The notes below the pieces were generated by a model, which had not been told where the DNA came from, did not search any database, and saw nothing but the letters and a program-made list of their open reading frames with translations. Shown here piece after piece: positions 713-33,896 of a DNA stretch of 40,542 nucleotides (position 1 is its first letter; the number at the start of each line of letters is the position of its first letter). The DNA is taken from positions 1-40,542 of the forward strand of contig JAHDDZ010000001.1 of the NCBI GenBank assembly GCA_020629095.1, read 5' to 3'. This DNA comes from Candidatus Altimarinota bacterium. Lineage in GTDB: Bacteria > Patescibacteriota > Gracilibacteria > UBA4473. Made by a program: the position numbers and the translations under genes.

Positions 713-1416
713 TTCTTACACAGCCTACTTTGCAGCCTTCGCAGTCGCTTCTGTAATTTCTGGAACAGTGGGCTTTGGGGCAATGCTTGTTTTTTTTGCT
801 ATAACTAGTTTTTTTGCACCAGATCTACAAATTCTCTTACTTGCAGCAAGCACTGCTGCAAATATTAAAACAATTTATCAGTTGCATTTGTTTTGGCCTC
901 ACATTCGTTGGGATATAACAAGGCAAATTTTATTATTAGGAGTGCCATTTGCAATACTCGGTTCGCTTATGGCGCAATATGTACCTGCAGATTTTTTTCG
1001 GCATTGGAGGATTTATATTGCTCTTTGTTTTGTGGAAATTTTCTAGCCCAAAGTTAGAAGAAATGCCCTCTTGGATTATAAAAATTTGGTCTGGTGTTTG
1101 GGGCAGTGTTTCAGGCTTGGTTGGGGCTGGAGGGCCTATTTTGGTTTCTTTGGTTTCGACTTTTCACCTGCAAAAAAATGCACTTGTTGCAACCATGCAG
1201 GCCCTTTTTTTCTTCTCGACTCTTGTCAAAATTCCAGGGTACCTGACAATTGAAAACAGCATCACTGATATTCGCTTTTTGTTCGTAATGGTGGTTATTG
1301 GCATTGTTGGGACTCGCATTGGCAAATGGCTTCATGATCGAGTCCCAGAGCAGTTGTTTCAAAAAGTTGTATTGGGGCTTTTGGCGCTGTCTGCAATGAA
1401 AATGTTGTGGCCCTAA
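705..1416 (+). pseudogene. TauE/SafE (DUF81) family anion-exporter permease, split by a frameshift in a T7 run
   Basis: ORFs 705..1046 and 949..1416 are both polytopic membrane segments. They carry motifs such as VISGTVGFGAMLVF and GLVGAGGPILVSL, as in TauE/SafE. Removing one T from the T7 run at 992-998 joins them as ...YVPADFFGIGGFILLF..., giving about 236 aa, the normal family size. Confidence 0.7.
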
Positions 1417-2470: not shown

Positions 2471-2479
2471 TGATATAAT
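2471..2479 (+). promoter_or_regulatory. Extended -10 promoter (TGATATAAT) for the 2486 gene, in a leaderless configuration
   Basis: TGn-TATAAT spans 2471-2479. TATAAT ends at 2479 and the ATG is at 2486, leaving a 6-nt gap (agaaag). Confidence 0.5.
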
Positions 2480-2485
2480 AGAAAG

Positions 2486-3694
2486 ATGTATTTTTGGCGC
2501 ATTTTGGCCCTTGTTTTGTTTCTGTCTCCGCTTGTATATGCGGATGATCAAGCAGTGCCAGAAAATGATTGCCAAATTGACGCAAACCAAAAAGAGAAGA
2601 CAACGGGCATTGCCCAATATATTTCGAATATTGATACGGACACGTATTTGCAGGTTGAGGACAGTTCTGGCTATACTTCCACAGAATATATTGAGGATCT
2701 GAAAAGCAAAAATACTTCAATGGAAAGCCCATTTTTGCATACGCTCTCACTCAGCCTTGAAACCGCAAAGTCGGCGCTTGGGCTGACAGACATCAGTGGC
2801 GAAAGTGCGGCGCTGGTCGAAGAGGCGTTTTATAAACGAGAGGAGCAAGTATTATTGCGGCATGTGTTTCAGACAAAACCGCTTAGCGGAAACTGCCGTG
2901 TGCACTTCGTAACTGACGACATCCGCCGAGACGTAAAAGCGCGAATAAATGAAGCGTGTGTGCAATTGGCTTCATTTGCAGAAGATGCAGATCGGATTTT
3001 GGAAACGCCAAAATCGCCAGAATACTACGCCGGGGTTCGCTTTCAAACATGTAAAAATGAGCTGATAGTGCCGATTATTTCACAGCTTAAAAATATTATC
3101 GGAGGAGGAAATAGCTCGCTAGAGCAGAAATATGCTGAGCTGACAGATAAAGATTCAAGCTGGCAGACTATCCAAAAAGATCTGTCAGAAAAGCGAAAAG
3201 AGTGGAGAACCGCGCAGGAGATTGGTGACACTGAAGATGTGGAGCGGATTCAAGAAGAAATAGAGGCACTGGAGGATGAGTTAGAGCAAATTACGATTGC
3301 AGTAGAAAGTCGGCTGGAGCTCTATAAATCATATGTGCAGGTGCTGGAAGAAAGCGCAACCGCGAGCAATGTGCAGTTGAGTGGCAGCCAAACGGGCACA
3401 TTTGATGTGTGCGTGCTGTCTATTGGCGGAGAGTGCACACGAAATGTGTGGGGAGATGGCGAAAATAGCCTGTTTACAAAGATAATTCGAGGGGCGATAA
3501 GTGTAGTTGGCACCCTGGCGGTTGTTGTCCTTATCATTGCTGGCTACTACTTGCTGCTTAGTCGCGGTGACGAGTCAATGCAAGCAACCGGAAAGGGGAT
3601 GATATTAAACGTGGTGTTGGGGTTGGCAGTCGTGTTCCTCAGCTATGTGCTGGTGCAGGCGGTCATCTCGTTTCTCTTTAGCCTTGGCGGATGA
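2486..3694 (+). CDS. Secreted coiled-coil protein with a C-terminal VirB2/TrbC-like two-helix pilin hairpin
   Basis: The N-terminal signal peptide is MYFWRILALVLFLSPLVYA/DD. A central acidic coiled coil reads DVERIQEEIEALEDELEQI. The C-terminus has two TM helices separated by a short polar loop (GAISVVGTLAVVVLIIAGYYLLLSRGDESMQATGKGMILNVVLGLAVVFLSYVLVQAV). This resembles the T4SS-pilin-like domain common in CPR proteins. Confidence 0.6.
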   Translation: MYFWRILALVLFLSPLVYADDQAVPENDCQIDANQKEKTTGIAQYISNIDTDTYLQVEDSSGYTSTEYIEDLKSKNTSMESPFLHTLSLSLETAKSALGLTDISGESAALVEEAFYKREEQVLLRHVFQTKPLSGNCRVHFVTDDIRRDVKARINEACVQLASFAEDADRILETPKSPEYYAGVRFQTCKNELIVPIISQLKNIIGGGNSSLEQKYAELTDKDSSWQTIQKDLSEKRKEWRTAQEIGDTEDVERIQEEIEALEDELEQITIAVESRLELYKSYVQVLEESATASNVQLSGSQTGTFDVCVLSIGGECTRNVWGDGENSLFTKIIRGAISVVGTLAVVVLIIAGYYLLLSRGDESMQATGKGMILNVVLGLAVVFLSYVLVQAVISFLFSLGG

Positions 3695-6129: not shown

Positions 6130-6165
6130 GAATTAGATTTGTTTGTGTGTGTGGGGGTAAAATGC

Positions 6166-6193
6166 TTGACAGTTTTTTCTGTTCGCCTAGCAT
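6166..6193 (+). promoter_or_regulatory. Candidate promoter for tuf
   Basis: TTGACA (6166-6171), a 16-nt spacer, then TAGCAT (6188-6193). The -10 lies 29 nt upstream of the ATG at 6223. Confidence 0.45.
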
Positions 6194-6222
6194 GTTGGCG
6201 AATCTTTTTAACCTACCCTAAG

Positions 6223-7416
6223 ATGAATGAGTTTGTACGAAACAAGCCACACGTAAATGTGGGTACCATTGGTCATGTTGATCATGGAAAAACCACTCTT
6301 ACTGCTGCCATTACAGCAGTTCTTAATAACCGTCACGGAGACCTTGCGGCGAATCAAGCAGTTGCGTTTGACGCAATTGATAACGCGCCAGAAGAAAAAG
6401 CGCGTGGGATTACTATCTCAACAAGTCACCAAGAGTATGAAACAGCAGCACGTCATTACGCACATGTTGACTGTCCAGGACATGCCGATTATGTGAAAAA
6501 CATGATTACAGGGGCGGCTCAAATGGACGGGGCAATCCTCGTTTGTGCAGCAACTGACGGGCCAATGCCACAGACAAAAGAGCACATCCTTCTTGCAAAA
6601 CAAGTTGGCGTTGATCACATCGTTGTTTTCTTGAATAAGTGCGATATGATGGACGACGAAGAAATGCTAGAGCTTGTGGAAATGGAAATTCGAGAAGAGC
6701 TATCAAAACGTGATTACAACGGAGATGACGCAATTATTGTTCGAGGTTCTGCGCTAAAAGCACTTGAAGACCCAGGCAGCGAATGGGGAGATAAAATTAT
6801 GGAATTGATGACGTCTCTTGATACTGAAATTCCAGAACCAAAACGAGAAATCGATAAAGATTTCCTTATGCCAGTTGAAGACGTATTCTCTATTAAAGGT
6901 CGTGGAACTGTTGCAACAGGGCGAATCGAGCAAGGGAAGATCAACACAGGCGATGAAGTAGAGCTGGTTGGGATTAAAGAAACTCGAAAGCTGGTTGTGA
7001 CTGGTGTAGAGATGTTTAAAAAACTACTAGGAGAAGGTCTGGCAGGGGACAATGTTGGTCTACTCCTTCGCGGTATTGAGCGAGAAGAAATCGAGCGTGG
7101 ACAAGTGCTTGCAAAGCCTGGTTCAATTACTCCGCACAACGAGTTTGAAGCTGAGGTTTACATCCTTAAAAAAGAAGAAGGTGGTCGTCACACTCCATTC
7201 TTCAAAGGCTACAAGCCACAATTTTTCATCCGAACATCTGATATTACTGGTGAAATTCACCTACCAGACGGTGTTGAAATGGTGATGCCTGGTGACAATG
7301 CCAAGTTCACAGTGAGCCTCGGTTCACTTATCGCCCTAAATGAAGGAACGCGATTCGCGATCCGAGAGGGAGGACGGACAGTTGGTGCTGGTGTAGTAAC
7401 AAAAATTACAAAGTAA
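6223..7416 (+). CDS. tuf: Elongation factor Tu
   Basis: The protein starts [34 protein letters not shown] and NKCD G-motifs are present. I chose the ATG at 6223; the 28-codon extension of the track ORF (start 6139) has no EF-Tu counterpart and covers the promoter. Confidence 0.97.
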
Positions 7417-7572: not shown

Positions 7573-8604
7573 ATGGCAAACTACTATGATGACTTGGGCG
7601 TTGGCAAAAATGCGACCGAAAGTGAGATCAAAAAAGCATATCGCGCAAAGGCAAAACAGCATCACCCAGATAAAGGGGGGAATGAGGCTGACTTTAAGAA
7701 GATAAATGAGGCGTATGAGGTGCTAGGAAATACACAGAAAAAGGCGCAATATGATCAATTTGGAACAACTGGAAATGCTTCTGGTGGCGGCATGAATTAT
7801 GATTTTTCGGGAGGAGGATTTGGCGGATTTGAAGACATTTTTTCAAATATCTTTTCAGGTGGATTTGGTGGGCAGCAGCCCCGAAAGCAGCAAACTCGCG
7901 GAAGAGATTTGGAGACGACAATTCGCATTAGCTTTACTGATAGCTTAATGGGGGCGCGGCAGAGTTTAAACGCGCATACATTTGTGGCGTGTGGCACATG
8001 TGACGCTGCCGGAGGCAGTGACAAAACAGCCTGCGCGACGTGTGGCGGCAGGGGCTCTGTGACCCAAAAAATGCAAACGCCGTTGGGGGCTTTTCAGCAG
8101 CAAGTGCCGTGTCAAAGCTGCCGAGGGGAGGGGGTTTCATTTGCAAAAAAGTGCGCAAAGTGCGCTGGAGAGGGGCGAGTAAAAGAGCGCAGAACAGTTG
8201 AGGTAGAAGTGCCAGAAGGGGTGGAACATGGTCAAACGTTGCGGCTTGGTGGGCAGGGCGAGGCTGGCCGGCGTGGTGCACAGGCTGGAGACCTGTATGT
8301 GACGATTGAGGTGGCGCCGAGTAGTGAGTGGAAGCGCAAGGGGCTTGACCTCATTTCGCGTTTGCAGGTGCCAGTTTTTGAGGCGCTTTCTGGCGGTGTT
8401 TTCTCTGTTAAGACCTTTTGGGGAAATGTAGATATTACGGTTCCGGAACTGACAAAAGAGGGTACGCTGTTGCGGTTAAAAGGCAAAGGAGTGAAGTCAA
8501 GCGGTCGTGCCGGAGACCACTATGTGGAGGTTGAGTATGTGATGCCAAAACGAGTCAATACCAAGCTAAAAAAACTGCTTTCAGATGCAGCAAAAATGGC
8601 TTAA
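7573..8604 (+). CDS. dnaJ: Molecular chaperone DnaJ
   Basis: The J-domain reads YYDDLGV...HHPDKGG (HPD motif). A G/F-rich linker follows. Four CxxCxG-type zinc motifs are present (CGTCDAAGG, CATCGGRG, CQSCRGEG, CAKCAGEG). I chose the ATG at 7573 (MANYYDDLGV). Confidence 0.95.
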   Translation: MANYYDDLGVGKNATESEIKKAYRAKAKQHHPDKGGNEADFKKINEAYEVLGNTQKKAQYDQFGTTGNASGGGMNYDFSGGGFGGFEDIFSNIFSGGFGGQQPRKQQTRGRDLETTIRISFTDSLMGARQSLNAHTFVACGTCDAAGGSDKTACATCGGRGSVTQKMQTPLGAFQQQVPCQSCRGEGVSFAKKCAKCAGEGRVKERRTVEVEVPEGVEHGQTLRLGGQGEAGRRGAQAGDLYVTIEVAPSSEWKRKGLDLISRLQVPVFEALSGGVFSVKTFWGNVDITVPELTKEGTLLRLKGKGVKSSGRAGDHYVEVEYVMPKRVNTKLKKLLSDAAKMA

Positions 8605-8605
8605 A

Positions 8606-9649
8606 TTAGGCACGAAATTGGGCATGAGCACTTGCCAAATCATGGCTCGTAATGGCACATAAAAGCGATAATTCGGCACACAAAACGCCAGCTCCAATCA
8701 CCATTGCCAGCTCGTCTGCTGCTTTCCCAGTGCCATTTTTTTGAGTCAGCCCAATGGCCTGTAGCCACTTGTTTTGTGTTGGAAGCCTTGTTCCACCGCC
8801 CACTGTGCCGACCAGTATGCATGGCATTTCAATCGTTATTTTAATTCCAGTATCTGTCTGCTGCAGGATGGTCGTGCCAGTTGCGCCATCTGCTATGTGC
8901 GATGGGTCTTGACCAGTAGCAATGAAAACTCCGGCTAGGATATTTGCATGGTGCGCATTTTGGCCAATAGCCTTAGCCAGTCGTGAACCACTTTTGAGCT
9001 TAGCCTCAGAGACTATTAGCAGTTCCTTTGGGGTCGTTTTCAGTACCTCTGACAGCACTTTTATGCTGATCTCTGCACTTGTTTTTATCATGCGCCCACG
9101 GCCGCTTGTGGCATTTCGCAGGCTGGCTTTTTTGTCACTGCACAGGTTTCCGCTCGTCGCAATCAACGTGCCTCCCCATTCTGGGACCAGCAGCTCATCA
9201 CAGATTCGTTTTGCGCTAATTGTAGCCATATTCATGCCCATCGCATCGGCCGTGTCAAACTTCATTTCAACGTGCACAAATTCATCATCTGTTAGTACTT
9301 TTGCCCCGAGCCATTGTGTGTGTAAGCTTGTTTGTTTGATGCATTTTTGAACTGCATCTGCATTTTCTCTAAACCAATTTTCATACCATTCTTGAGACTT
9401 TTTATTTTTAATTTTAAATACTGGTGCACGTGTAATTCCAACTCGTTGTATAGATGAAATAGCCCCACCACAAAGGCTAATTGCTTTTGCGCCGCGGTTG
9501 GCAGATGCAACTAAACAGGCCTCTGTGGTCGCGATCGGCAGAGCATATTTGTTCCCATTTACTTGCATTTCTTTGACCAGCCCAACGGGCAGCTCAACCA
9601 CACCAGATATATTTTCGCAGTTTTGTTCGTATGCGCTCAAATCGCTCAT
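8606..9649 (-). CDS. Class I-type HMG-CoA reductase, minimal catalytic domain
   Basis: Motifs seen: ENISGVVELPVG, TTEACLVAS, DAMGMNM, GTVGGGT and a C-terminal His (SAHAQF). I chose the ATG at 9649 because it forms an ATGA overlap with the upstream stop. An alternative ATG lies at 9676. Confidence 0.88.
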   Translation of the reverse strand: MSDLSAYEQNCENISGVVELPVGLVKEMQVNGNKYALPIATTEACLVASANRGAKAISLCGGAISSIQRVGITRAPVFKIKNKKSQEWYENWFRENADAVQKCIKQTSLHTQWLGAKVLTDDEFVHVEMKFDTADAMGMNMATISAKRICDELLVPEWGGTLIATSGNLCSDKKASLRNATSGRGRMIKTSAEISIKVLSEVLKTTPKELLIVSEAKLKSGSRLAKAIGQNAHHANILAGVFIATGQDPSHIADGATGTTILQQTDTGIKITIEMPCILVGTVGGGTRLPTQNKWLQAIGLTQKNGTGKAADELAMVIGAGVLCAELSLLCAITSHDLASAHAQFRA

Positions 9650-10263
9650 GCTGGCATTATACGCGTCGGCACGCAATTGTCACCCGCAAGCCACTTTTGC
9701 AGCACATTTGGTACCCCGTGAGAGATGTGCACAATGGCCCCCATGGCGGCGCAAGATCTTGCTGCAGCCACCTTTGCAGCGATTCCGCCAGTAGCATCAT
9801 GATTTTTTCTTGCAAAAGAAATGTTATTTTGCAGTTCTGCAATTGGCTTCTTTTCAGTATCAAATAAGCATGCATCGCTTAAAAAAAGAACCCGCTGCGG
9901 CTGAAGCCGTTTGCACAGATGTACCATAACTGCGTCTGATCCAGTTACCTCTTTGGGCTCAATTACCCCACGAGTGAGTTGTCCAGTGGCTGATTTGTCA
10001 TATCGCACAGAGGGTAAATCAAGACCGCATTTTGCGGCTGTTTGCTGAATTTTGCGAGTTAGCTCCACCATATTTTTGTGGCCGACTTCTCTATCATTTT
10101 GCAGCAAAGGCGGGTGCCCCCAGCTACCACCTCCATGCAGAATTATTCCCTTGAAATTACTTGCCGCCAGAACCATAAAAATCCCTTCTAACGCCGCTTC
10201 GTCGTAACTTTTTTCAACCATTTTATCACTAAAAATACTGCCTCCAATTTTAATAATATCCAT
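9646..10263 (-). CDS. ipk: Isopentenyl phosphate kinase (amino-acid-kinase fold)
   Basis: Motifs seen: IKIGGSIFSDK, ILHGGGSWGHP (the IPK His motif), LFLSDACLFD and DATGGIAAKV. The ATG at 10263 overlaps the upstream TGA by 1 nt (TGATG). An alternative TTG lies at 10266. Confidence 0.78.
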   Translation of the reverse strand: MDIIKIGGSIFSDKMVEKSYDEAALEGIFMVLAASNFKGIILHGGGSWGHPPLLQNDREVGHKNMVELTRKIQQTAAKCGLDLPSVRYDKSATGQLTRGVIEPKEVTGSDAVMVHLCKRLQPQRVLFLSDACLFDTEKKPIAELQNNISFARKNHDATGGIAAKVAAARSCAAMGAIVHISHGVPNVLQKWLAGDNCVPTRIMPA

Positions 10264-11243
10264 CAAAAAAGGTGCTGATTTGTTGCAGTTGCTCCCTTTC
10301 CAATTGGCGAGCTGATAATTTTTTCTATACCATCTATTTTGGCTATCGCACTTTCAACAATTTTTTTGTTTTTTACAGGTGTTAAAACGTGCACCGTGCT
10401 GCCAGCATCAAGCGTCCAAGTCACTGAAATGCCATCTTTTTGTAGGTCATAAACAGCGGCAATGATGGCTCCTGTTGTTTGATTTGTATAATTTAAAGAC
10501 GGATTACCGCTCATCATAACGGCATGGAGGGCAAGTGCCTGAGATTCTGAAATGGCGAGAAAAGCACTAAAATCTTGTTGAGAAATAGCGTGCTGAAGTT
10601 GCCTTATTTGTGCCTCACTCATTGTGATTCGGGCTTTTTGCAACGGGCTTTTTGCAGCAAAATCATGCCCTTCGAGCGAGCCAATCTGTTTTGGTTTTGT
10701 GTCTGAAACGGCAATAATATCAACCAAATTCCATTCATTTTCACCTGCTATTTTTTCTGTTTTTCCAGTTTGGAAAAGTGCCCCCCAGCCATCATGAGCA
10801 CTTCTTAGGGCAGAACCACTTCCGGCGATATGCATTAGGTCAATATGCTGCATTGGAGCGATCAGAATAGCGCTGCAAGCCGCGTACCATAGGGCACAAA
10901 CCCCAGACGCAGAAGACGCAATTCCGGCACTCATGGGGAAGTTAAGCTGGCTTTTGGCTTTCCATTTATGGGTTATTTCAGCAGTTTTAGCGATGGCATT
11001 TACCATATCAAAAATCATTTGTGCACGTGCTGAACTAGTTGGGTCAAGCTGTACCTCTTCTCCTGTTTCGAGCTCTATTGTTAATGTATTCTCATCGTAG
11101 TCAGCATCAAAACAAATTGTTGTATGCGCGGTGCAGGAGGCTAAATTCATGCTCAAACTCGGGCTGGCCGGTAGTCGGCCCTGCGCATGGCCCCAGTGCT
11201 TAATGATAGCAATATTGGCCGGAGCAATTGCGCTAGCTTTCAT
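10263..11243 (-). CDS. Mevalonate diphosphate/phosphate decarboxylase homolog (GHMP family)
   Basis: APANIAIIKHWG corresponds to APVNIA.IKYWGK in known enzymes. NFPMSAGIASSASG, GSGSALRS and TLDAGST also match. I chose the ATG at 11243 (ATGA overlap with the idi stop); the track ORF starts at 11273. Confidence 0.85.
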   Translation of the reverse strand: MKASAIAPANIAIIKHWGHAQGRLPASPSLSMNLASCTAHTTICFDADYDENTLTIELETGEEVQLDPTSSARAQMIFDMVNAIAKTAEITHKWKAKSQLNFPMSAGIASSASGVCALWYAACSAILIAPMQHIDLMHIAGSGSALRSAHDGWGALFQTGKTEKIAGENEWNLVDIIAVSDTKPKQIGSLEGHDFAAKSPLQKARITMSEAQIRQLQHAISQQDFSAFLAISESQALALHAVMMSGNPSLNYTNQTTGAIIAAVYDLQKDGISVTWTLDAGSTVHVLTPVKNKKIVESAIAKIDGIEKIISSPIGKGATATNQHLF

Positions 11244-11800
11244 ACTTTTTGCTGATTTATATTTTCTTTCCACCAGTCGCTAAAGGCTTTATTGTGGTGC
11301 AATAAAAGTACTTCCTCTCGGCACCATGGGCTCAGGTGACTCCATTCTATCATCCTATTTTGCAGCAAATTGTTCCAATTTACCCACTGCGTTTTTGCCA
11401 CTTCGTCTGCATTTGGCTTGGGGGCATCTGACAAAGTTCCAACCCAAATTGGGCACCATTCGTGCTCCATGACTTCATCCATAGTGGCCCTATAACTATA
11501 GTTTGGCACCATCTCAATTATGCTTTTTGGTGAAACCCCAAGCTCAAATTGAGCTCTTCGCGTAACGGCATCAGTCATTTTTTCACCAGGTAGCGGGTGC
11601 CCACAAACTGAGTTGCTCCATACGCCAGGCCACGTTTTCTTGCTATGAGATCGTTGTTGCAGCAATAGTTTGCCGTCTGGAGAAAATAAAAAGCAAGAGA
11701 AAGCTTTATGCAGAGGCGTTTTTGAGCTATGAACAGTGGCTTTTAAGGTTGTGCCAATTTCATTCCAATTAGCATCGAGCAGGATGACTTCTTCGTTCAT
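11240..11800 (-). CDS. idi: Type 1 isopentenyl-diphosphate delta-isomerase (Nudix fold)
   Basis: Motifs seen: LHKAFSCFLF, LLLQQRSHSKKTWPGVWSNSVCGHP and EHEWCPIW. Length is 186 aa. Confidence 0.9.
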   Translation of the reverse strand: MNEEVILLDANWNEIGTTLKATVHSSKTPLHKAFSCFLFSPDGKLLLQQRSHSKKTWPGVWSNSVCGHPLPGEKMTDAVTRRAQFELGVSPKSIIEMVPNYSYRATMDEVMEHEWCPIWVGTLSDAPKPNADEVAKTQWVNWNNLLQNRMIEWSHLSPWCREEVLLLHHNKAFSDWWKENINQQKV

Positions 11801-12654
11801 AGGCTGATTATACTCGATAGGTGTGCCACGGCCAGTGGCCCAAAAAAGTACCAGAAGGCAATCATTCCCATAAGGGTGTTTATGACGGGAAGTCTCTTGT
11901 AGACAGCAAAAAGAGTGGAATTACTTTTCCAGCTTGTAAAAATAATAGTTGTATAGACTCCCATTCCAAGGATTCCTGCGAGTAGAGAATATTGCAGAGT
12001 AATCGCAAAAGTCGTCATCCATAAGGCCCACACATACATAAGCGTTCTGTGCTTGCCAAGAGTAGTAGCTGTAGTAGAAAGGCCCGCTTTCGTATCAGCG
12101 GGGATGTCTGGAATAGCACTATATGCATGCATTCCCACCATCATCGACCAAATTCCCACAAATGCAACCCAGTCTGACGGTTCAGTTGAAATAGACCAAT
12201 ATCCTATGAGTGCTGGGCAAGTATACAACACATTGCTAACCGAGTCAAGAAATGGCCGTGCCTTCAGTCGAACTGGCGGAAGAGAGTAGCTGAGTGACAA
12301 AATAAGCCAGCCCGCCCATGCCACCTGCGCAGCTATTGGAGTAATCAGCAGTAGTGGTACAACTGGCAGATGTAAGAGTAAGATCCACCACACCAATGGG
12401 CGCGTTTTACTGCTTTTGTGGCGGTTTTCATATCCATCTTTTTTTGCATTCAGTGCGTCTGTGTCTCGATCACTTATGTCATTTATGCCATATACTAGTA
12501 GATTTGCCGGCAGGGTAAAATATGCCAACCAAAGCCAAAAAGTGGGCGTCCAGAAGTCACCAACAGACTCTGCTCCGGCCGCCCAGCCTACGGCAAATGT
12601 CCCGGCTAAATACCCCCAAAACCGTGGCCGACTGGTCCTCAAAATCCATTTCAT
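11797..12654 (-). CDS. UbiA-family aromatic/polyprenyl prenyltransferase, possibly lycopene-elongase-like
   Basis: The protein is polytopic. It starts with SRPRFWGYLAG. The first Asp-rich motif is YGINDISDRDTDALNAKK and the second is AIPDIPADTKAGLSTTATTLG. It sits directly after crtB and crtI. The family call is firm; the substrate call is an inference. Confidence 0.75.
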   Translation of the reverse strand: MKWILRTSRPRFWGYLAGTFAVGWAAGAESVGDFWTPTFWLWLAYFTLPANLLVYGINDISDRDTDALNAKKDGYENRHKSSKTRPLVWWILLLHLPVVPLLLITPIAAQVAWAGWLILSLSYSLPPVRLKARPFLDSVSNVLYTCPALIGYWSISTEPSDWVAFVGIWSMMVGMHAYSAIPDIPADTKAGLSTTATTLGKHRTLMYVWALWMTTFAITLQYSLLAGILGMGVYTTIIFTSWKSNSTLFAVYKRLPVINTLMGMIAFWYFFGPLAVAHLSSIISL

Positions 12655-14168
12655 GAGAGATCAGTTAATGATGTGAGCATACTACCAGATCGGTCATTTA
12701 TGATGTATTTATAGGCCAATTGACTGCTGAGTAAGCTAATTGGCACTCCGATGCCGGGGTTTGTGCCAGCCCCTGTATACAGCAAATTTTCCACTTTTTT
12801 GCTTTTGGCAGGGGGTCTAAAACATGCCGTTTGCCTCAGTGTATGGGCCAATCCAAGCGCACTCCCACCATATGCGTTATATCTGTCTTTGAAGTCGCTG
12901 ATACTAAAACTTCGCTGAAACACAATTCGCTCGCGGAGGTTTTTTATCGGAAACTTTTCCTCCATATGCGCCAAAACGCGGTCGATTTCACGTGCCCTGG
13001 TGGCATCATCATCGAGTAATTTGGGACTTATTGGCACCAGTACAAATAGGTTTTCATGTCCATCTGGGGCAGTTTCTGGCTCAGTCTTGCTCGGGGCACA
13101 TACATACAAACTTGGCTCAGTTGGATATTTTGGGTTGATAAAAAGTTCATCAAAACCGCCTTTCCAGTCATCTGCAAAAATGAGATTATGGTGGACCAAA
13201 TGATCGCATTTCCCCTTTACCCCAAGATATAAAATGAGTCCACTGGGCGCCCATTTGCGCTTTTTCCAATACGGTTTTGAGTAGGTTCTATGCCGCTTTT
13301 TAGTTATCAGTTGTGTTTCTGTGAAGGCATAATCGGCATTGCTAATGACGATATCAGCATGCATTTCAGTTCCGTTTTGCAGCCGCACGCCCACCGCCTT
13401 TTTGTCTTCTATTAAAATCTCCGCCACTTCTGTGTTCAGCCGTATGTCTGCTCCGTGTTTTTTTGCAATGCCCGCAAACGACTTCATGACCGCGTGCAGA
13501 CCCCCTTTAGGGTACCACACCCCCATGTTGAAATCAATATGACTCATGAGGCTATAGATCGCAGGAGCATCATATGGTGAGGTGCCCAAGAATACCATTG
13601 CGTACTGCAAAATCCGCTGTATATGAGAGTTTTTTGTATATTTTTCTACGTGCTTTGCGAAGCTCGAAAAGACCCCCAGCTCCATTCCCATGCGGGCTGT
13701 GCGCAGGTTTATCAGATCAAAAATACTCTCATAATTCTTGCACATAAAATCACTCTTACTGATTTCATATTTCGTTTTTGCCTTCTCTAAGTACGCCAAA
13801 AGTCGTGGTGTGACACCTTTTTCAAATGCCTCAAAAGTAGGCAAATCTTTCTTCAAGTCACTAAAAATCGTAGTTGGGGGCGTCAGATCATTATTCCCCC
13901 ACCATATTTTATAGGCGGGATCAAGCTGTGTCAGCTCCAGCTGTTCCTCTACCTTTTCACCTAGCAGTGCATAAAAATCTGCAAATAAATCTGGCATTAA
14001 ATACCAACTGGGTCCCATATCAAAACGAAACCCATCAGCCTCGAAAAAACCTCCACGACCGCCTACGCACTCATTTTTTTCCACCACTGTCACCTGCGCC
14101 CCAGATCTTGCCAGTAAGGCTGCAGCTCCAAGCCCTCCGATGCCACTGCCGATAATTATTGTTTTCAT
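12651..14168 (-). CDS. crtI: Phytoene (or diapophytoene) desaturase, CrtI family
   Basis: The FAD motif reads IIIGSGIGGLGAAALLARSG..VVEKN..GGR. The C-terminus has YTGAGTNPGIGVP. I chose the ATG at 14168 (MKTIIIGSG), which forms an ATGA overlap with the crtB stop. The track ORF starts at 14198. Confidence 0.85.
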   Translation of the reverse strand: MKTIIIGSGIGGLGAAALLARSGAQVTVVEKNECVGGRGGFFEADGFRFDMGPSWYLMPDLFADFYALLGEKVEEQLELTQLDPAYKIWWGNNDLTPPTTIFSDLKKDLPTFEAFEKGVTPRLLAYLEKAKTKYEISKSDFMCKNYESIFDLINLRTARMGMELGVFSSFAKHVEKYTKNSHIQRILQYAMVFLGTSPYDAPAIYSLMSHIDFNMGVWYPKGGLHAVMKSFAGIAKKHGADIRLNTEVAEILIEDKKAVGVRLQNGTEMHADIVISNADYAFTETQLITKKRHRTYSKPYWKKRKWAPSGLILYLGVKGKCDHLVHHNLIFADDWKGGFDELFINPKYPTEPSLYVCAPSKTEPETAPDGHENLFVLVPISPKLLDDDATRAREIDRVLAHMEEKFPIKNLRERIVFQRSFSISDFKDRYNAYGGSALGLAHTLRQTACFRPPAKSKKVENLLYTGAGTNPGIGVPISLLSSQLAYKYIINDRSGSMLTSLTDLS

Positions 14169-15013
14169 GAAAAAAGGGCTAATCGGAGTTTTTGCCACTT
14201 GCTAAGCGAATAATTGCTGTGGTGCACATGGTACTCAGACTGCTCAATTTTGTCTAAATATGCCGAATAAAGCTGGCTCGCGGCTCGAACAGCCCACCGC
14301 CCACGAGGGTGCAATTTCTCTATTGCAGGGGCTGCTTCCGCATATAATTTTCTGGCACGTGCAGCCTGGAATTGCATAAAATCTGCCCATCCTTTTGGAT
14401 ATTCTTTTTTTGCAATATGTGCCTCCGTTATACCCCATTTTGCCATTTCGTCAGCCGGTAAATAAATTCGCCCGAGGTCAAAATAATCCTCTGAAATATC
14501 TCGTAAAAAATTTGTGAGTTGCATGGCATATCCCAGTTTTGCAGCCGCATTAAGTGTTTCTTTATCTGGAGGAGATCTATCTGCCATGCCAATGGCGTAG
14601 GTCATGAGCACGCCCACCGCGGCAGCAGATCCGTCCATATATGTACACAGATCGCTATAATTTGCATATCGATTTTTATGGGTGTCCATGCGCATTGCGG
14701 CCAAAAAAGAACTAGCGTGTTTTGGTGGCACTTTTAGCTCTTGGTGCAAACCTGCAGCTGCCAGGAGCACGGGGTGCGTTGTTGAGTCCACTCCTATTTG
14801 CGCCTTTTCCCATGCAGCCTCCCAGGCGCTCAGGGACTGTTTTTTGTTTTGTATTTCAGGGCTATCCACTATGTCATCTGGCAATCGAAAAAAGGCATAG
14901 ATGATGTAGGTACGGTCACGAAGCCACTTTGGAAATAGACGCGTTGCACTTGCGTAGGTTGGTCCACGATTGTGCATTATGGCTTTACAAAAGGCAATAT
15001 CATGCTTTTTCAT
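14165..15013 (-). CDS. crtB: Phytoene/squalene synthase family enzyme (CrtB/CrtM type)
   Basis: Asp-rich motifs FFRLPDDIVDS and NFLRDISEDY are present, plus YMDGSAAAVG. Length is 282 aa. Confidence 0.85.
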   Translation of the reverse strand: MKKHDIAFCKAIMHNRGPTYASATRLFPKWLRDRTYIIYAFFRLPDDIVDSPEIQNKKQSLSAWEAAWEKAQIGVDSTTHPVLLAAAGLHQELKVPPKHASSFLAAMRMDTHKNRYANYSDLCTYMDGSAAAVGVLMTYAIGMADRSPPDKETLNAAAKLGYAMQLTNFLRDISEDYFDLGRIYLPADEMAKWGITEAHIAKKEYPKGWADFMQFQAARARKLYAEAAPAIEKLHPRGRWAVRAASQLYSAYLDKIEQSEYHVHHSNYSLSKWQKLRLALFS

Positions 15014-15948
15014 GCGGTTCGATTCATTAAAAAGTGAAGCAAATCAAAGAGCGAGTTATGCTGTTTTTCACTCAGAGGGCAATTCTTTAGAAGTGTTAAA
15101 GCTGTTTCATGGTGCTTTTGTGCTACTTCTTGGGTGGCGGCATATGCGCCTATTTCGGCATAAAATGCATGAATTTGCTCTATGTTTTTTGTATCTAAAA
15201 TGGCTTTGTGCTTCTCTGGTTTTTGTATTTGTGCATAGGCTGTATAGTGCGTTGCCTTTCCCTCCATGATATCATTAAGCACAGGTTTTCCCACTTCCTC
15301 ACTGTCAGACTGGGTGTCTAGCAGGTCATCCATCAACTGAAATGCCGTTCCCACAGCAGTGCCCCATGCCTCTGCCCAAGCCAGTTGTTGATTCGTTGTT
15401 TTAGTGGCCATAAGGCCCAACTGTAAAGGGCGTGTCACAGAGTATGTTGCTGTCTTTAAATAGGTTTTTTGCAGCACATTCTCCATGCTGCTTTGCGGTG
15501 TTAATTGGGCATCGAGCACTTGTCCAGAGAGGACTTCGCGCTGAAGTGCGCTCCATGTTTTTTGCGCAGCTTCATGGGGGTTTGTTTTTGAAAAATACTC
15601 ATGAGAGAGCATCAGCAGCCAGTCACCAGACAGCAAAGCAAGGTCATTTCCAACCTCTGTATGAACCGTTTTGCTTCCTCGCCGCAGGGGGGAATTGTCC
15701 ATGATATCATCATGTACTAAGGCAAATCCATGCAACAGCTCAAGTGCAATTTGTAGGTTATTTCTAGAAAAATCATCTGCGCCAATGGCCGCAAGATATG
15801 GACGAATACGTTTCCCTCCACGGAGAACTAAATCAGCTGCAGGGGCAAATGCAACCTTGGCAGAGTCATGCGGTAATGCCAAAAGGCTATCAGAAAGGGC
15901 ATCTTTAAGGGTTTTTTGAAAGATATTTGCGTATGGAATTATTTTCAT
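15010..15948 (-). CDS. Polyprenyl diphosphate synthase (GGPP/FPP synthase type)
   Basis: The first Asp-rich motif is LVHDDIMDNSPLRRG and the second is FQLMDDLLD. I chose the ATG at 15948 (MKIIPYANIF, 312 aa) because it forms an ATGA overlap with the preceding small gene. The track ORF extends to 16104. Confidence 0.85.
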   Translation of the reverse strand: MKIIPYANIFQKTLKDALSDSLLALPHDSAKVAFAPAADLVLRGGKRIRPYLAAIGADDFSRNNLQIALELLHGFALVHDDIMDNSPLRRGSKTVHTEVGNDLALLSGDWLLMLSHEYFSKTNPHEAAQKTWSALQREVLSGQVLDAQLTPQSSMENVLQKTYLKTATYSVTRPLQLGLMATKTTNQQLAWAEAWGTAVGTAFQLMDDLLDTQSDSEEVGKPVLNDIMEGKATHYTAYAQIQKPEKHKAILDTKNIEQIHAFYAEIGAYAATQEVAQKHHETALTLLKNCPLSEKQHNSLFDLLHFLMNRTA

Positions 15949-16205
15949 AAAAGTGGCATCAAGGCAGGGGCATGGACTATTCTTCCATCTGGCAGTATAT
16001 TTTTTCGCATCATAATAATCTTCACTCTTTGTCCTTCCGCGCATGTATATCCTGGCATGATTGGAAAAATATGCTTTTTGGCTTCCAATTGAGTCAATGC
16101 CCAAGTACCACTATTTGAGGTCGTCACATGCAAAATGGTTCCACTCTTGCCTATAAACGCTTTATCTTTTTGCCACAAACGGTTTTGCTGCGTAGGGGAT
16201 ATCAT
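15945..16205 (-). CDS. Small DUF35/OB-fold acyl-CoA-associated protein homolog (86 aa, no zinc ribbon)
   Basis: This is the C-terminal 86 aa of track ORF 15945..16364, starting at the ATG at 16205. That ATG forms an ATGA overlap with the thiolase stop. The sequence is MISPTQQNRLWQKDKAFIGKSGTILHVTTSNSGTWALTQLEAKKHIFPIMPGYTCAEGQRVKIIMMRKNILPDGRIVHAPALMPLL. It has the G.G.v...T / v.L.e / iG..V pattern of the DUF35 OB domain. Its position after HMGCS and thiolase matches the archaeal gene order. Confidence 0.5.
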   Translation of the reverse strand: MISPTQQNRLWQKDKAFIGKSGTILHVTTSNSGTWALTQLEAKKHIFPIMPGYTCAEGQRVKIIMMRKNILPDGRIVHAPALMPLL

Positions 16206-17308
16206 GCTTTTTTGACTATGTGAATAACAACGGTTCCGCCGGTTCCCCCCACATTGTGTGCCAGACCTGTTTTGACTCGGTCTGTTTGGTTTCTGGCAAG
16301 GGTTATAAGCTGTCGCACGCCGGTTGCGCCAACCGGGTGCCCAAAAGCTTTTAACCCTCCCCATGGGTTTATAATTATTTCAGATTCTCTTTGTAGCATT
16401 GTCTCTAAAAGTGAATGCGCTTGCCCTCTTTTTGCTAGCCCGAGGTCCTCCACTGCAAGAGAAAGTGATATAGAAAAACAGTCATGCAAGCAGTATTGGT
16501 CAATATCAGAAATGCTTATTTCAGCCTGATTTAGGGCATTAGCGAGAACCATGCTTGTTGTCAAAATCTGTGTTAAATCTGCCCGATTTGAAAGCCCTGG
16601 AGGACCACTTTTGGTGGCACTGGCAGTGATTTGTGTGGAGGACTTTTTGGCACTCAGCACAAGGGCGGCGGCACCATCTGTGATGGGGGCTGCGTGTAGC
16701 AGTCGCATGGGGCTGCTCACCATCTGGCTTGATTCAATTTGTTTATTTGAGAAGTTTTTATGAAACTGCGCCAAAGTATTTTCAGTTGCCTGGCGGTGCA
16801 TCAGTTGCATTCCAGGGCTAAAAACTGTTGCATCGTGCCCATGCTTTTTCATATAGGCCTGTGCGATGAGGGCATAGAGACCACCAAAAGTGATGCCGGT
16901 TGAGCTCTCCGCCTCAGTTGTCGCTCCCATCAGCGCTTGGTTGACGGTTGCACTAGAGTGATCTGTCATTTTTTCTGTGCCGATGACAAGAGCATTTGTA
17001 GCAAATCCAGCAAAGACATCCTTCCATCCTAAATGCACAGCAATACCACCAGAAGCGCAAGCGGCCTCCGTTCTGATACAAGCTGCAGAAATGCCCAACT
17101 TTTCTGCAATAATAGCACCTAGGTGTCCTTGCTCATCAAGGGCAATTCCGAGCATATTTCCAACATAGAGCACATCAATATCAGCGGGACTAATACCACT
17201 TTCAGAGAGCGCTTCAGCTCCCGCGAACACCCCCAAGTCAACCGCGGAAAGGCCATCATGCCGCCCAAATTTTGTGCATCCAGTTCCGTTTATAAAGACA
17301 GAATTCAT
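16202..17308 (-). CDS. Archaeal-type acetyl-CoA acetyltransferase (thiolase)
   Basis: The start reads INGTGCTKFGRH. The catalytic Cys context is TEAACASGG. The C-terminus has HPVGATG and NVGGTGG. Length is 368 aa. Confidence 0.9.
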   Translation of the reverse strand: MNSVFINGTGCTKFGRHDGLSAVDLGVFAGAEALSESGISPADIDVLYVGNMLGIALDEQGHLGAIIAEKLGISAACIRTEAACASGGIAVHLGWKDVFAGFATNALVIGTEKMTDHSSATVNQALMGATTEAESSTGITFGGLYALIAQAYMKKHGHDATVFSPGMQLMHRQATENTLAQFHKNFSNKQIESSQMVSSPMRLLHAAPITDGAAALVLSAKKSSTQITASATKSGPPGLSNRADLTQILTTSMVLANALNQAEISISDIDQYCLHDCFSISLSLAVEDLGLAKRGQAHSLLETMLQRESEIIINPWGGLKAFGHPVGATGVRQLITLARNQTDRVKTGLAHNVGGTGGTVVIHIVKKA

Positions 17309-18306
17309 GAAAGTGGGCGGTTTATTTCATTATATGCTTGTGCGTCAAGCACCTGCATGGCGGCTATCTGTTCTCGAATAGGCATTGTTTTACACCCACT
17401 TTCAGCTTTTTTTGTGACCACAAATGCATCAGCCCCAGCCCCAGAGCCGTAACTGCAGCAAAGGATTTTGTCTCCAATTTTTGCTTCATCAAGGGCAGCG
17501 CAAAGCCCCAAAGGTATACAGGCTGCATAGGTATTTCCAATCAGCGGAACCAGCCACCCAGCAGCTAATTGTGCTCTTGTTATCACCATTTTTTGTGCTA
17601 CTTTGAGGGGGAGTTTTGCGTTTGGCTGGTGCAAGATTACATGCGCATAATCTGCTATTTTGCTTTGTGTTTCATTCAGCAATAACTGCAGTGCGCCGCA
17701 CACAACCTCTATGTAGGTCTCATTGCTATGCGCCCCAGCATGGATTGGATGATCTGCCTTGTTACTGCGCCAAAAGTCTAGTCTATGAACTGAATAGCTC
17801 TGCCAAGATTCTATGGTGGCAATAGGCGTTTTACCCACTAAAAAAGCGGCAGCACCTGCCCCAGCCGTGTAGTGCAGTGGGTCCCCAACTTTGCCAGTTG
17901 CACAGTCCGAGGCAACCGCAATTCCACTTTGGCTGCGGCCTGTCGCTACATGGCACAGGGCCATGTCGAGTGCGACGGTTCCGGCTTTGCAGGCAAATTC
18001 AACATCAGCCGTTTGGCAGTTTGTATCCATGCCAATTCCATCGACAATCATACTGCTAGTTGGGTTTACTGCATAGAGGGGCGTTTCGCTCCCGAAAAAA
18101 AGACATCCGGCTTTCTGTGTCGTTAGGCTACTTGCGGCTCGCAACCCAAGTGTCAAACTGTCAGTCGCCGTGCCTGGAATAGATTTTTGTGAAACACCCA
18201 GCCCAGCGTACAGCGTTTTTGGCTGCCCGGCTAACTCCGCAAGCAGTTCTTGTTGTGCACAAAAACCAGGAATCGCCACCCCATATTCTTGTATTCCAAT
18301 TGCCAT
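17305..18306 (-). CDS. Archaeal-type HMG-CoA synthase
   Basis: VEFACKAGT holds the catalytic Cys. LHQPN and IGNTYAAC are also present. Length is 333 aa. Confidence 0.88.
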   Translation of the reverse strand: MAIGIQEYGVAIPGFCAQQELLAELAGQPKTLYAGLGVSQKSIPGTATDSLTLGLRAASSLTTQKAGCLFFGSETPLYAVNPTSSMIVDGIGMDTNCQTADVEFACKAGTVALDMALCHVATGRSQSGIAVASDCATGKVGDPLHYTAGAGAAAFLVGKTPIATIESWQSYSVHRLDFWRSNKADHPIHAGAHSNETYIEVVCGALQLLLNETQSKIADYAHVILHQPNAKLPLKVAQKMVITRAQLAAGWLVPLIGNTYAACIPLGLCAALDEAKIGDKILCCSYGSGAGADAFVVTKKAESGCKTMPIREQIAAMQVLDAQAYNEINRPLS

Positions 18307-18833
18307 TACACCAAAAAGTGCACAAGCGTGTTGTCTGCTGTCAGCTGCGCTTTTGAAAAAGCAAATTCCCCCTCGTGTTTTGTTGCGCCAGATTCGGCCT
18401 GCACAGTCGGCATCAGCGCACCATCACCACAAATAAGTGCGACCGCAGGGCTAATTTTATCAATCAATTCATCCACTTTTTTGGCATCAAAATCCTTGCC
18501 TACCGCAATAATTGCCACCGCAATATTTTCTCCTACCTCCTCTAGCATCGCAGCATTTGGCACGGCGGTCAGTTGACCAAAGTGGCAAATGGTCCCATCA
18601 GCAGATGTGACCTTATAAATAGTATTTTTTTCACTCGAAGAAACGCCCTTTAGTAAAATATTCCCAATTTCAAATTCACCTGGAAGAAATATATTTCGCC
18701 CGCCTCCAGTAGTATTTTCAGCTCGGTCATGCCATGTTGTTAAAACAGAATCGCCAGTTGCAGCACTCATTCCGACAACTCCCTCTGTGCACGTCACAAC
18801 AAATCCGAAATCATCTTTTGCCATTATTTTCAT
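18306..18833 (-). CDS. MBL-fold (Lactamase_B_3-like) protein with degenerate metal-binding motifs
   Basis: MKIMAKDD...LPGEFEIGNILLKGVS..KNTIYKVTSADGTICHFGQL..LEEVGENIAVAIIAVGKD...ALICGD follows the layout of small MBL-fold hydrolases (PGEYE..G, N.iy.ie.dG..i.H.GDLG, PVGG, PMHY). The HxHxDH and later His/Asp positions are replaced. I chose the ATG at 18833; the track ORF starts at 18881 and would overlap the holA start. Confidence 0.4.
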   Translation of the reverse strand: MKIMAKDDFGFVVTCTEGVVGMSAATGDSVLTTWHDRAENTTGGGRNIFLPGEFEIGNILLKGVSSSEKNTIYKVTSADGTICHFGQLTAVPNAAMLEEVGENIAVAIIAVGKDFDAKKVDELIDKISPAVALICGDGALMPTVQAESGATKHEGEFAFSKAQLTADNTLVHFLV

Positions 18834-18857: not shown

Positions 18858-18886
18858 ACTATAGTCGACCCTCCACCACATGGCAA
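18858..18886 (-). promoter_or_regulatory. Candidate promoter for the 12-gene isoprenoid operon
   Basis: On the minus strand: TTGCCA (18886->18881), a 17-nt spacer, then TATAGT (18863->18858). The -10 lies 24 nt upstream of the ATG at 18833. Confidence 0.4.
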
Positions 18887-29094: not shown

Positions 29095-29122
29095 TTGACT
29101 TTTGCTGGCATTTGAGAAGAAT
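29095..29122 (+). promoter_or_regulatory. Weak candidate promoter for the ATPase operon
   Basis: Tandem TTGACTTGACT lies at 29090-29100. The best -10 is AAGAAT (29117-29122), with a 16-nt spacer from the second TTGACT. Confidence 0.3.
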
Positions 29123-29146
29123 TCGAAGGATTTGAAATTGCCCCAT

Positions 29147-31450: not shown

Positions 31451-31471
31451 ACTTCTTTAATTTTTTTACAC

Positions 31472-31978: not shown

Positions 31979-31980
31979 AC

Positions 31981-33883: not shown

Positions 33884-33896
33884 TTTCATTTATACT

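Follow-up and report, generated by a model that had tools for sequence, protein, structure and literature searches.

The window analysed here, that is the whole stretch of DNA under study, comprises the whole 40,542 nucleotides of the public contig JAHDDZ010000001.1 (assembly GCA_020629095.1, Candidatus Altimarinota bacterium). On its minus strand, 12 consecutive open reading frames (ORFs) fill positions 8606-18833 and form a chain of ~10 kb, made of 11 isoprenoid genes and one unrelated small gene whose product resembles the metallo-beta-lactamase (MBL) fold (Table 1). In this chain, genes of the mevalonate pathway are interleaved with genes of carotenoid synthesis. The present text deals with this fused order, with the route by which the encoded enzymes would supply isoprenoid precursors, and with the pigment to which they would lead.

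Gene content of the chain and its place among known clusters

Table 1. Genes of the chain and candidate transcription signals at its ends and within it (positions in the window)
Feature	Position	Strand	Evidence and remarks
Promoter-like TTGCCA-17-TATAGT	18858-18886	-	Consensus match 10/12; overlaps the start of the divergent holA; leader of ~24 nt before the ATG at 18833
Small degenerate MBL-fold protein, 175 aa	18306-18833	-	Weak Pfam Lactamase_B_3 match in the C-terminal half, 29.9 bits
3-Hydroxy-3-methylglutaryl-CoA (HMG-CoA) synthase (HMGCS), archaeal/Candidate Phyla Radiation (CPR) type	17305-18306	-	NCBIfam PRK04262 293 bits, cutoff 244; EFACKAGT catalytic motif
Acetoacetyl-CoA thiolase, archaeal (SCP2-like) type	16202-17308	-	Pfam Thiolase_N and Thiolase_C_1
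86-aa ORF in the DUF35/OB-fold scaffold position	15945-16205	-	Position after the thiolase
Short-chain trans-polyprenyl diphosphate synthase	15010-15948	-	Pfam polyprenyl_synt 169.5 bits; DDIMD and DDLLD motifs
CrtB, phytoene synthase family	14165-15013	-	Pfam SQS_PSY 220 bits, full length
CrtI-family phytoene desaturase	12651-14168	-	TIGR02734 474 bits, cutoff 238
UbiA-family prenyltransferase	11797-12654	-	NCBIfam PRK12875 257 bits, cutoff 205; both Asp-rich motifs
TATAAT-N6-ATG ending on the IDI start codon	11798-11812	-	Candidate internal leaderless promoter
Isopentenyl-diphosphate isomerase (IDI) type 1 (Nudix)	11240-11800	-	NCBIfam PRK03759 217 bits, cutoff 127; TIGR02150 148 bits, cutoff 105.8
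MVD-family decarboxylase	10263-11243	-	Pfam MVD-like_N and MDD_C
Isopentenyl phosphate kinase (IPK), short form, 205 aa	9646-10263	-	Pfam AA_kinase
GTGACA-16-TATAAT-N6-ATG ending on the HMGR start codon	9647-9683	-	Candidate internal leaderless promoter; 11/12, best in the region
HMG-CoA reductase (HMGR), class I	8606-9649	-	Pfam HMG-CoA_red 309.7 bits; TEACLVAS, DAMGMN and GTVGGG motifs
Terminator-like hairpin with T-run	8574-8591	-	Lies within the 3' end of the convergent dnaJ, 15 nt past the stop of HMGR; only such hairpin for the operon

All the junctions of the chain are overlaps. Nine of the 11 are of the 4-nt ATGA type, the lowest coordinates of the stop codons being 17305, 16202, 15945, 15010, 14165, 12651, 11797, 11240 and 9646, and in the two others the genes share a single nucleotide (TAATG at 18304-18308, TGATG at 10261-10265). 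A first-pass annotation made from the sequence alone had described this twelve-gene chain with 11 overlapping junctions, and re-extraction of each junction returned the same coordinates. The start codons behind the overlaps are backed by homology and by public gene calls: family profiles align from residues 1-5 for HMGCS, the thiolase, CrtI, the MVD-family decarboxylase, IDI and HMGR, and an independent public gene call gives the same lengths for the four proteins compared (decarboxylase, 326 aa; HMGR, 347 aa; HMGCS, 333 aa; MBL-like protein, 175 aa). Besides, for several genes of the chain no in-frame start is available that would abolish the overlap. Genetic code 25, used by Gracilibacteria, was considered and discarded, TGA ending 10 of the 12 genes exactly at the ends of the family profiles.

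The catalytic motifs are intact in the translations of all pathway enzymes. Most of the gene identities first proposed were borne out by Pfam, NCBIfam and PDB matches, namely those of HMGCS, the thiolase, the polyprenyl synthase, CrtB, CrtI, UbiA, type-1 IDI, the MVD-family decarboxylase, IPK and class-I HMGR; the DUF35-like label, in contrast, is only marginally detectable, and the MBL-like protein turned out to be degenerate and to travel with holA.

The arrangement was compared with 80 species-representative genome loci collected with the decarboxylase profile, 80 metagenome loci collected with the HMGCS profile and five distinct CrtI loci (numbered below with the prefix L). The fused mevalonate and carotenoid order occurs in none of the 160 mevalonate loci and in none of the five CrtI loci: no carotenoid genes stand beside the mevalonate genes of the former, and no mevalonate genes were found in the latter. 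The order had been called unusual at first sight, and the search for it in other genomes agrees with that view. Nor was a mevalonate-carotenoid operon of CPR bacteria found described in the literature searched, an absence limited to the papers covered. Judged from these comparisons, the fused order appears to be the new part, its components being already known for CPR bacteria.

Among the closest parallels are the CPR mevalonate clusters (PMC6107057, PMC4736985), which share with the window an archaeal-type thiolase and HMGCS followed by a small gene, of OB-fold type in the CPR clusters, a class-I HMGR, a type-1 IDI, an MVD-family decarboxylase, an IPK gene syntenic with IDI, and tight overlaps, features that were seen directly in L005, L017, L111 and L167. 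Canonical CPR clusters carry a mevalonate kinase (MVK) and a phosphomevalonate kinase (PMVK), or a P-loop kinase, between thiolase/DUF35 and MVD; both kinases are present in L005 and L017 and absent in the window. They are also syntenic with a cis-prenyl synthase, undecaprenyl diphosphate synthase (UPPS; PF01255 in L005, L017, L111 and L167), which is not found in the window. Two orders recur among them, HMGR - HMGCS - thiolase - DUF35 - MVK - PMVK - MVD - UPPS and IDI - UPPS - MVK - MVD - HMGR - HMGCS - thiolase - DUF35. Compared to these, the window keeps the sub-blocks HMGCS-thiolase-small ORF and IDI-decarboxylase-(IPK)-HMGR, the local order of the latter being IDI - decarboxylase - IPK - HMGR with HMGR as last gene, whereas the kinases are dropped, a trans-prenyl synthase replaces the cis-prenyl synthase, and the four carotenoid genes CrtE-CrtB-CrtI-UbiA are inserted between the two blocks and thereby split the cluster.

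A separate observation concerns L111 and L167, related metagenomic mevalonate clusters with one GHMP kinase only. The gene that follows the thiolase there joins a DUF35 OB-fold domain and a guanylate-kinase-like P-loop domain in one protein (L111, 12134-13054; L167, 12491-13543), and this fusion is a candidate for a non-orthologous PMVK tied to the thiolase/HMGCS scaffold.

The joining of a precursor-supplying mevalonate pathway to product genes is also known from the Streptomyces mevalonate clusters that adjoin the naphterpin, furaquinocin and terpentecin clusters (Kuzuyama 2017, PMC5509993). These, however, contain the bacterial-type NphT7, class-I HMGR, MVK, PMVK, diphosphomevalonate decarboxylase (MDD) and type-2 IDI, and they constitute a secondary pathway alongside the methylerythritol phosphate pathway. 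Moreover, their mevalonate genes stand apart, in a block next to those for the product, whereas those of the window are interleaved with them in one overlapping chain.

As regards the upper pathway, the closest solved relatives of HMGCS and of the thiolase are found in the thiolase/HMGCS/DUF35 complex of Methanothermococcus thermolithotrophicus (6ESQ/6ET9, E=3.5e-62 for HMGCS; 6ESQ chain A, E=5e-60 for the thiolase), and the thiolase also matches NCBIfam PRK06064 and the model of the M. thermolithotrophicus acetyl-CoA acetyltransferase. The best PDB match of HMGR is the archaeal class-I enzyme 6HR7 (E=2e-63), class II enzymes reaching ~1e-11 only. The archaeal type attributed earlier to these upper-pathway enzymes is thereby supported. 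With its 347 aa, HMGR is devoid of ~75 N-terminal residues of the Methanothermococcus enzyme 6HR7 and is ~30 residues shorter than other CPR HMGRs; a longer form is ruled out by an upstream stop codon.

A small gene follows the thiolase in the window, as in the Methanothermococcus complex, but unlike its counterpart there, the encoded 86-aa protein has no DUF35/OB-fold match, and a similar complex of the window's proteins is putative. Searches of Pfam, NCBIfam and PDB sequences returned no match for this ORF. The gene found after the thiolase in CPR clusters codes for a 99-100-aa OB-fold protein of PF01796, with which mainly the N-terminal 29 residues of the 86-aa protein align (blastp E=0.017), and a hidden Markov model of the CPR DUF35 proteins selects the 86-aa ORF as its top match in the window, with a weak E=0.08. 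In the light of its position and of these residual similarities, it is probably a shortened and divergent DUF35 homologue. Single-sequence AlphaFold models were unusable for this protein (predicted local distance difference test, pLDDT, 40) as well as for the 175-aa MBL-like protein (pLDDT 33).

The proposed lower mevalonate route and the expected pigment

The decarboxylase is the gene on which the reading of the lower pathway mostly turns. Its best PDB match is 6N0X (E=1.2e-44), which we take to be the mevalonate-5-phosphate decarboxylase (MPD) of Anaerolinea thermophila, the PDB table naming it only 'diphosphomevalonate decarboxylase'; diphosphomevalonate decarboxylases follow at 2e-26 or weaker. 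In 6N0Z, a variant of the 6N0X protein, one aligned Asn is exchanged for Lys and one aligned His for Met; His193 of the window's decarboxylase aligns with that His, and its position 19 with that Asn. At the positions listed as contacting the substrate phosphate (PMC3857490), the enzyme has His16, His19, Arg23, Ser142, Ser144, Ser189 and His193, and the equivalent of Lys21 is absent. Among 80 homologous loci, position 19 is mostly Lys or Arg in CPR enzymes flanked by two GHMP kinases and Asn in Chloroflexi, whereas it is His in the window. Besides, the Tyr16 of the KYWG motif is kept in 79 of the 80 homologues, including those from CPR, Chloroflexi and other lineages, and is replaced in the window alone, which reads HWGH in place of the YWG plus K, R or N of the others. 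The nearest homologue among 5.8e9 proteins searched is 37% identical.

Directly downstream of the decarboxylase, as in the Anaerolineales locus L010, lies the IPK gene. The best PDB matches of its product are IPKs (8U0K, 2.6e-9, and 3LKK), and the motifs KIGGS, HGGGSWGH with the catalytic His, and DATGG are kept as listed for IPK in PMC3857490, the protein being ~40 residues short in its middle part compared to solved IPKs. In contrast, when every ORF of 100 aa or more was scanned with Pfam, neither MVK nor PMVK came up in the operon or elsewhere in the 40.5-kb contig, nor did any GHMP kinase except the decarboxylase itself. A hidden kinase was also sought by tblastn with the MVK and PMVK of CPR bacteria (E<=10), and this gave a weak match to the decarboxylase only. 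The complete mevalonate pathway announced in the first-pass annotation is therefore not encoded here: of the gene set of the alternative route, the thiolase, HMGCS, HMGR and IPK genes are present and MVK was not found in the contig.

This alternative route, with an MPD and an IPK, is assigned because 6N0X is the closest solved relative, the Lys/Arg of the substrate site is absent, the His193 of MPD type is present, the IPK gene adjoins, and no PMVK was found. The decarboxylase is thus most likely an MPD with atypical substrate-site residues, its substrate being inferred from these features. The known MPD/IPK pathway of Chloroflexi and haloarchaea (Dellas et al. 2013, PMC3857490; 6N0X) shows the same traits, i.e., an MVD-family enzyme devoid of the MDD Lys, a His near position 194, IPK as next gene and no PMVK. 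It differs from the window in that its decarboxylases share only ~37% identity with the present one, in which His replaces both the Tyr of KYWG and the Asn/Leu of MPD, and in that the Chloroflexi loci carry an MVK, which the window does not.

Turning to the carotenoid part, the polyprenyl synthase finds its best NCBIfam matches among short-chain synthases, all below their cutoffs, and is a probable geranylgeranyl diphosphate (GGPP) synthase of CrtE/IdsA-like type, its chain length being predicted from family resemblance. CrtB is 44-47% identical to the CrtB of the CPR carotenoid clusters L001-L003. CrtI reaches 588 bits, under the cutoff of 640, with the NF058655 model of CrtID, the bifunctional CrtI/CrtD enzyme documented in Haloarcula (PMC11946383), and its nearest homologues, 53-57% identical, come from CPR (Uhrbacteria, Saccharibacteria) and Acidobacteria. 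The NCBIfam model matched by UbiA is named only 'prenyltransferase'; the protein is 39-41% identical to the UbiA proteins encoded beside CrtI and CruF in L001-L003, and is a probable lycopene elongase similar to LyeJ/CrtEb.

The nearest homologues stand in the order polyprenyl synthase - CrtB - CrtI - divergent UbiA - CruF, in an Uhrbacteria genome and in metagenome contigs. The types of CrtI and UbiA, taken with these contexts, point to the bacterioruberin (C50) family, whose gene homologues have already been reported in Patescibacteria (PMC9948471). In the bacterioruberin clusters of haloarchaea and Arthrobacter (crtI/crtD - lyeJ - cruF; PMC11946383, PMC9948471), a CrtI/CrtD-type desaturase adjoins a LyeJ-type UbiA, as CrtI adjoins the probable LyeJ-like UbiA in the window, where CrtE and CrtB stand upstream of this pair as in the CPR loci L001-L003 and L085. 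On the other hand, the UbiA gene of the window is co-oriented rather than divergent, the module is embedded in mevalonate genes, and CruF is missing: the hydratase domain (PF04240), present in L001-L003, L084 and L086, matched none of the window ORFs scanned (at least 100 aa). Unless another part of the genome carries cruF, the product expected in the absence of CruF would be a C45/C50 carotenoid that stays unhydrated, of bisanhydrobacterioruberin type.

Taken together, these data make it likely that the chain combines, behind a resident gene, a CPR-type mevalonate module of the alternative route with an interleaved carotenoid module of C50 type, and that it depends on an MVK encoded elsewhere. 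In the corresponding scheme, each chemical step of which is read from homology, a promoter in the 46-bp gap next to holA would drive the MBL-like gene together with the 11 isoprenoid genes that follow. The thiolase and HMGCS, possibly assisted by the degenerate DUF35-type partner, would convert acetyl-CoA to HMG-CoA, from which class-I HMGR would form mevalonate. After phosphorylation to mevalonate-5-phosphate by the MVK encoded elsewhere, the MVD-family enzyme would yield isopentenyl phosphate, and IPK would turn the latter into isopentenyl diphosphate (IPP), as in the alternative route of Chloroflexi and haloarchaea. IDI would then provide dimethylallyl diphosphate and the trans-prenyl synthase GGPP, from which CrtB would make phytoene and the CrtI(D)-type desaturase lycopene. 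Finally, the LyeJ-like UbiA would add C5 units to give acyclic C45/C50 carotenoids of the bisanhydrobacterioruberin type, while leaderless promoters before IDI and HMGR may let the IPP-supply genes be expressed alone.

Several points weigh against this reading. The decarboxylase stays under both NCBIfam equivalog cutoffs, that for diphosphomevalonate decarboxylase (DPMD) and that for phosphomevalonate decarboxylase (PMD), and its His16 and His19 fit neither the characterised MPDs (Tyr/Asn) nor the MDDs (Tyr/Lys). With no MVK in the operon or the contig, the encoded pathway is one step short, from mevalonate to mevalonate-5-phosphate, and the assignment of the 86-aa ORF to DUF35 is marginal. 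The lack of CruF in the contig and a prenyl synthase whose chain length is predicted only make the end product uncertain. As to its origin, the codon usage of the chain correlates at 0.84 with that of the neighbour genes, compared to an internal baseline of 0.95, gene sets and amino-acid composition being different between the two. Furthermore, relatives with ~80% identical elongation factor G (EF-G) exist, yet the best decarboxylase among the 5.8e9 proteins reaches only 37%: either the close relatives are without the module, or the module evolves fast, and this leaves room for an older transfer.

If the proposed reading holds, the contig physically links the CPR mevalonate gene set to an end product, a C40-C50 carotenoid, and the MPD-like decarboxylase next to IPK, with no PMVK, points to use of the alternative route by one lineage of CPR at least. 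It would also indicate that some bacteria of ultra-small size, supposed to depend on hosts, make a membrane pigment of their own, a point of relevance to how far they are exposed to light, oxidative stress or cold. At 10.3 kb, the unit should give a coloured product and thus represents a compact, directly testable construct.

Transcription, origin and alternative readings of the chain

In the first-pass annotation, the chain was seen as a single cistron chain under tight stoichiometric coupling. Translational coupling is indeed plausible in view of the overlapping stop and start codons and the lack of Shine-Dalgarno (SD) motifs, but tight coupling and a single chain had been an inference, and two internal motifs resembling leaderless promoters lie at the IDI and HMGR starts. 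A different organisation, to which we give a substantial though somewhat less than even chance, is a set of nested transcription units, with leaderless promoters inside the chain at these two starts, the overlaps then reflecting genome compaction rather than stoichiometric coupling. In the contig there are exactly three copies of TATAAT-N6-ATG against 0.32 expected, none of 100 shuffles reaching three, and all of them end on gene starts: at 2474-2488 (+) for the first gene of the unit at 2486, at 9647-9661 (-) for HMGR and at 11798-11812 (-) for IDI, the HMGR copy being also preceded by the -35-like GTGACA. This geometry is that of leaderless-mRNA promoters, and it suggests that internal promoters could express the IPP-supply genes independently and that such promoters are a normal mode in this organism. 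Together with SD motifs that are nearly absent contig-wide (2 of 35 starts), the geometry is a hint that initiation throughout the genome may be SD-independent or leaderless. For the same reason of near-absence across the whole contig, SD-less starts are not special to the operon, and taken alone they are no sign of reinitiation.

The overlaps themselves can be read in both directions. Overlapping genes are common at the same-strand junctions elsewhere in the window (8 of 19), which is compact throughout, and the CPR mevalonate clusters L005, L017 and L111 likewise show mostly 1-8-nt overlaps; tight overlap is thus a habit of the lineage and of the pathway rather than something special to this operon. 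Nevertheless, 11 overlaps out of 11 remain above the local background (Fisher p=0.0016; chance of 11 overlaps at the local rate, 0.42^11 = 7e-5). The case for nested units consists of sequence motifs, promoter-like sites as a whole are not enriched in the region (20 found against 17.1 expected from shuffles), and internal promoters can coexist with read-through co-transcription. The two internal motifs argue against a strictly single transcript, and transcription as one chain may accordingly be incomplete. Scanning the whole window with Rfam gave no RNA family, riboswitch or leader, and no tRNA was detected. At the distal end of the chain, the stops of dnaJ (8602-8604) and HMGR (8606-8608) are convergent and 1 nt apart; at the proximal end, holA (ATG 18880, + strand) and the MBL-like gene diverge across the 46-bp gap.

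The MBL-like gene deserves separate treatment, since it had been counted as a member of the pathway operon. Its product matches TM0207/1VJN weakly, and the HxHxDH metal-site motif is absent from it and from its family of ~180-aa proteins. It was considered as a missing pathway enzyme and rejected: it has no metal-binding motifs, it is absent from all other mevalonate and carotenoid loci, and it stays with holA when MurJ replaces HMGCS. This replacement is seen in L171/L172, with holA - tsaE on one side and, divergently, MBL-like - MurJ on the other. In L089, a distant relative of roughly 47% identity represented by a 2.7-kb contig (ENA ERZ6863811 c_000001141231), pilD - holA stand on one strand and MBL-like - HMGCS, with a 4-nt overlap, on the other, the proteins being 38-48% identical to those of the window (48% for the HMGCS fragment). 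The MBL-like gene is thus probably a resident neighbour of holA and no pathway enzyme. Because L089 shares the holA / MBL-like-HMGCS layout, the isoprenoid genes appear to have been joined behind the MBL-like gene in an ancestor that the lineages of the window and of L089 have in common, which would be an old event and not a recent import.

The host itself can be placed with the help of EF-G, whose best named matches, 71-81% identical, belong to Candidatus Gracilibacteria, Peribacteria and Peregrinibacteria. The contig also encodes T4SS_pilin and DUF4012 proteins, and the genetic code is the standard one, since TGA acts as a stop. By these sequence traits, the source is placed as a standard-code member of the Gracilibacteria/Peregrinibacteria/Peribacteria group of CPR. 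In CPR, archaeal-type acetoacetyl-CoA thiolase and HMGCS, class-I HMGR, type-1 IDI and an IPK syntenic with IDI are characteristic and ancestral (Hoshino & Gaucher 2018, PMC6107057), and Peribacteria genomes have a near-complete mevalonate pathway of uncertain purpose (PMC4736985). The contrast between archaeal enzymes and a bacterial genome, from which a laterally acquired module had been deduced, dissolves accordingly, as the enzyme set is the published norm of CPR and the contig is a CPR one.

That the 10-kb block is a complete acetyl-CoA-to-pigment module, moved as one unit from Archaea into a bacterial genome, is in our view unlikely. The Methanothermococcus relatives of the thiolase, HMGCS and HMGR speak for it, as do the CrtID and LyeJ types and the MPD/IPK route, which are best known from haloarchaea (PMC11946383; PMC3857490), a gene order unlike that of canonical CPR clusters, and the lack, in organisms whose EF-G is ~80% identical, of any decarboxylase above 37% identity. 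However, archaeal-type thiolase and HMGCS, class-I HMGR and IPK are part of the normal CPR complement (PMC6107057). The nearest homologues of HMGCS, the thiolase and HMGR are 33-44% identical, many of them in bacterial or CPR-style clusters with MVD and type-1 IDI. Identities to homologues of HMGCS, the thiolase, HMGR and the decarboxylase reach ~44% at most, whatever the lineage, save for the HMGCS fragment of L089, and no donor can be named. The IDI is of type 1 and not of type 2, which is usual in Archaea, the block is incomplete in the absence of MVK, and the junction shared with L089 makes the location old. In terms of composition, the 12 genes match the other genes of the contig (GC 0.455 against 0.471 and GC3 0.408 against 0.441, both within 1 standard deviation). 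With no sign of recent transfer in composition, donor or location, the module cannot be upheld as a laterally acquired one in the sense first proposed; a transfer in ancient times may nevertheless have taken place, above all for the carotenoid or MPD/IPK parts. The enzymes appear to be CPR versions of archaeal-type mevalonate enzymes, ancestral or anciently acquired in the lineage, rather than a recent archaeal import. In L087 and L088, the two long contigs closest to the window, the order of the genes around EF-G is not kept, and the presence or absence of the operon cannot be read from them.

As regards the end product, a non-carotenoid or C30 compound, i.e., squalene or dehydrosqualene derivatives formed by an HpnD/CrtM-like synthase and an HpnE/CrtN-like oxidase, with UbiA prenylating something else, seems highly improbable. 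The SQS_PSY protein does have HpnD and HpnC as its top-scoring models (188 and 161 bits, below the cutoffs), and NCBIfam models leave the chain length of the prenyl synthase unsettled, but the desaturase gives 46 bits on HpnE against 588 on CrtID, the HpnCDE route needs two SQS_PSY genes where the chain has one, and the closest homologues of CrtB, CrtI and UbiA co-cluster with CruF genes in CPR loci. The slimmest chance is given to an MVK-independent lower pathway, in which the decarboxylase, with its His16 and His19, would act on unphosphorylated mevalonate or another non-canonical intermediate and the short IPK would phosphorylate toward IPP; were it true, the 11 isoprenoid genes would suffice to go from acetyl-CoA to a C50-type pigment, and this would constitute a fifth variant of the mevalonate pathway, in a CPR bacterium, with a defined role for the 'enigmatic' CPR IPK.

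Other features of the contig

Beyond the chain, the contig holds an operon for an ATPase of the V/A (archaeal/vacuolar) type at 29471-35660 (+), which encodes the subunits I, c, E, C, F and A and extends up to the convergent glmS. A possible small V/A-type ATPase subunit gene lies at 29102-29467, and no B or D subunit is encoded in the contig. Near the left end, two overlapping ORFs in different frames, 705-1046 and 949-1416 (+), correspond to the N- and C-terminal halves of a protein of the TauE/SafE sulfite-exporter family; such a split is a frameshift, due either to a pseudogene or to an assembly error.

C-terminal T4SS_pilin domains (PF18895) are present in a 402-aa and an 812-aa protein (2486-6129 (+)) as well as in a 167-aa protein (38332-38835 (+)), the genes of the first two overlapping by 4 nt and lying directly upstream of tuf. 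The latter, the ORF of elongation factor Tu (EF-Tu) at 6139-7416 (+), has a TTG start ~26 codons before the usual N-terminus, and its Pfam domain begins at residue 36, the true start being probably further downstream. For EF-G, the public gene call is 12 codons shorter than the maximal ORF.

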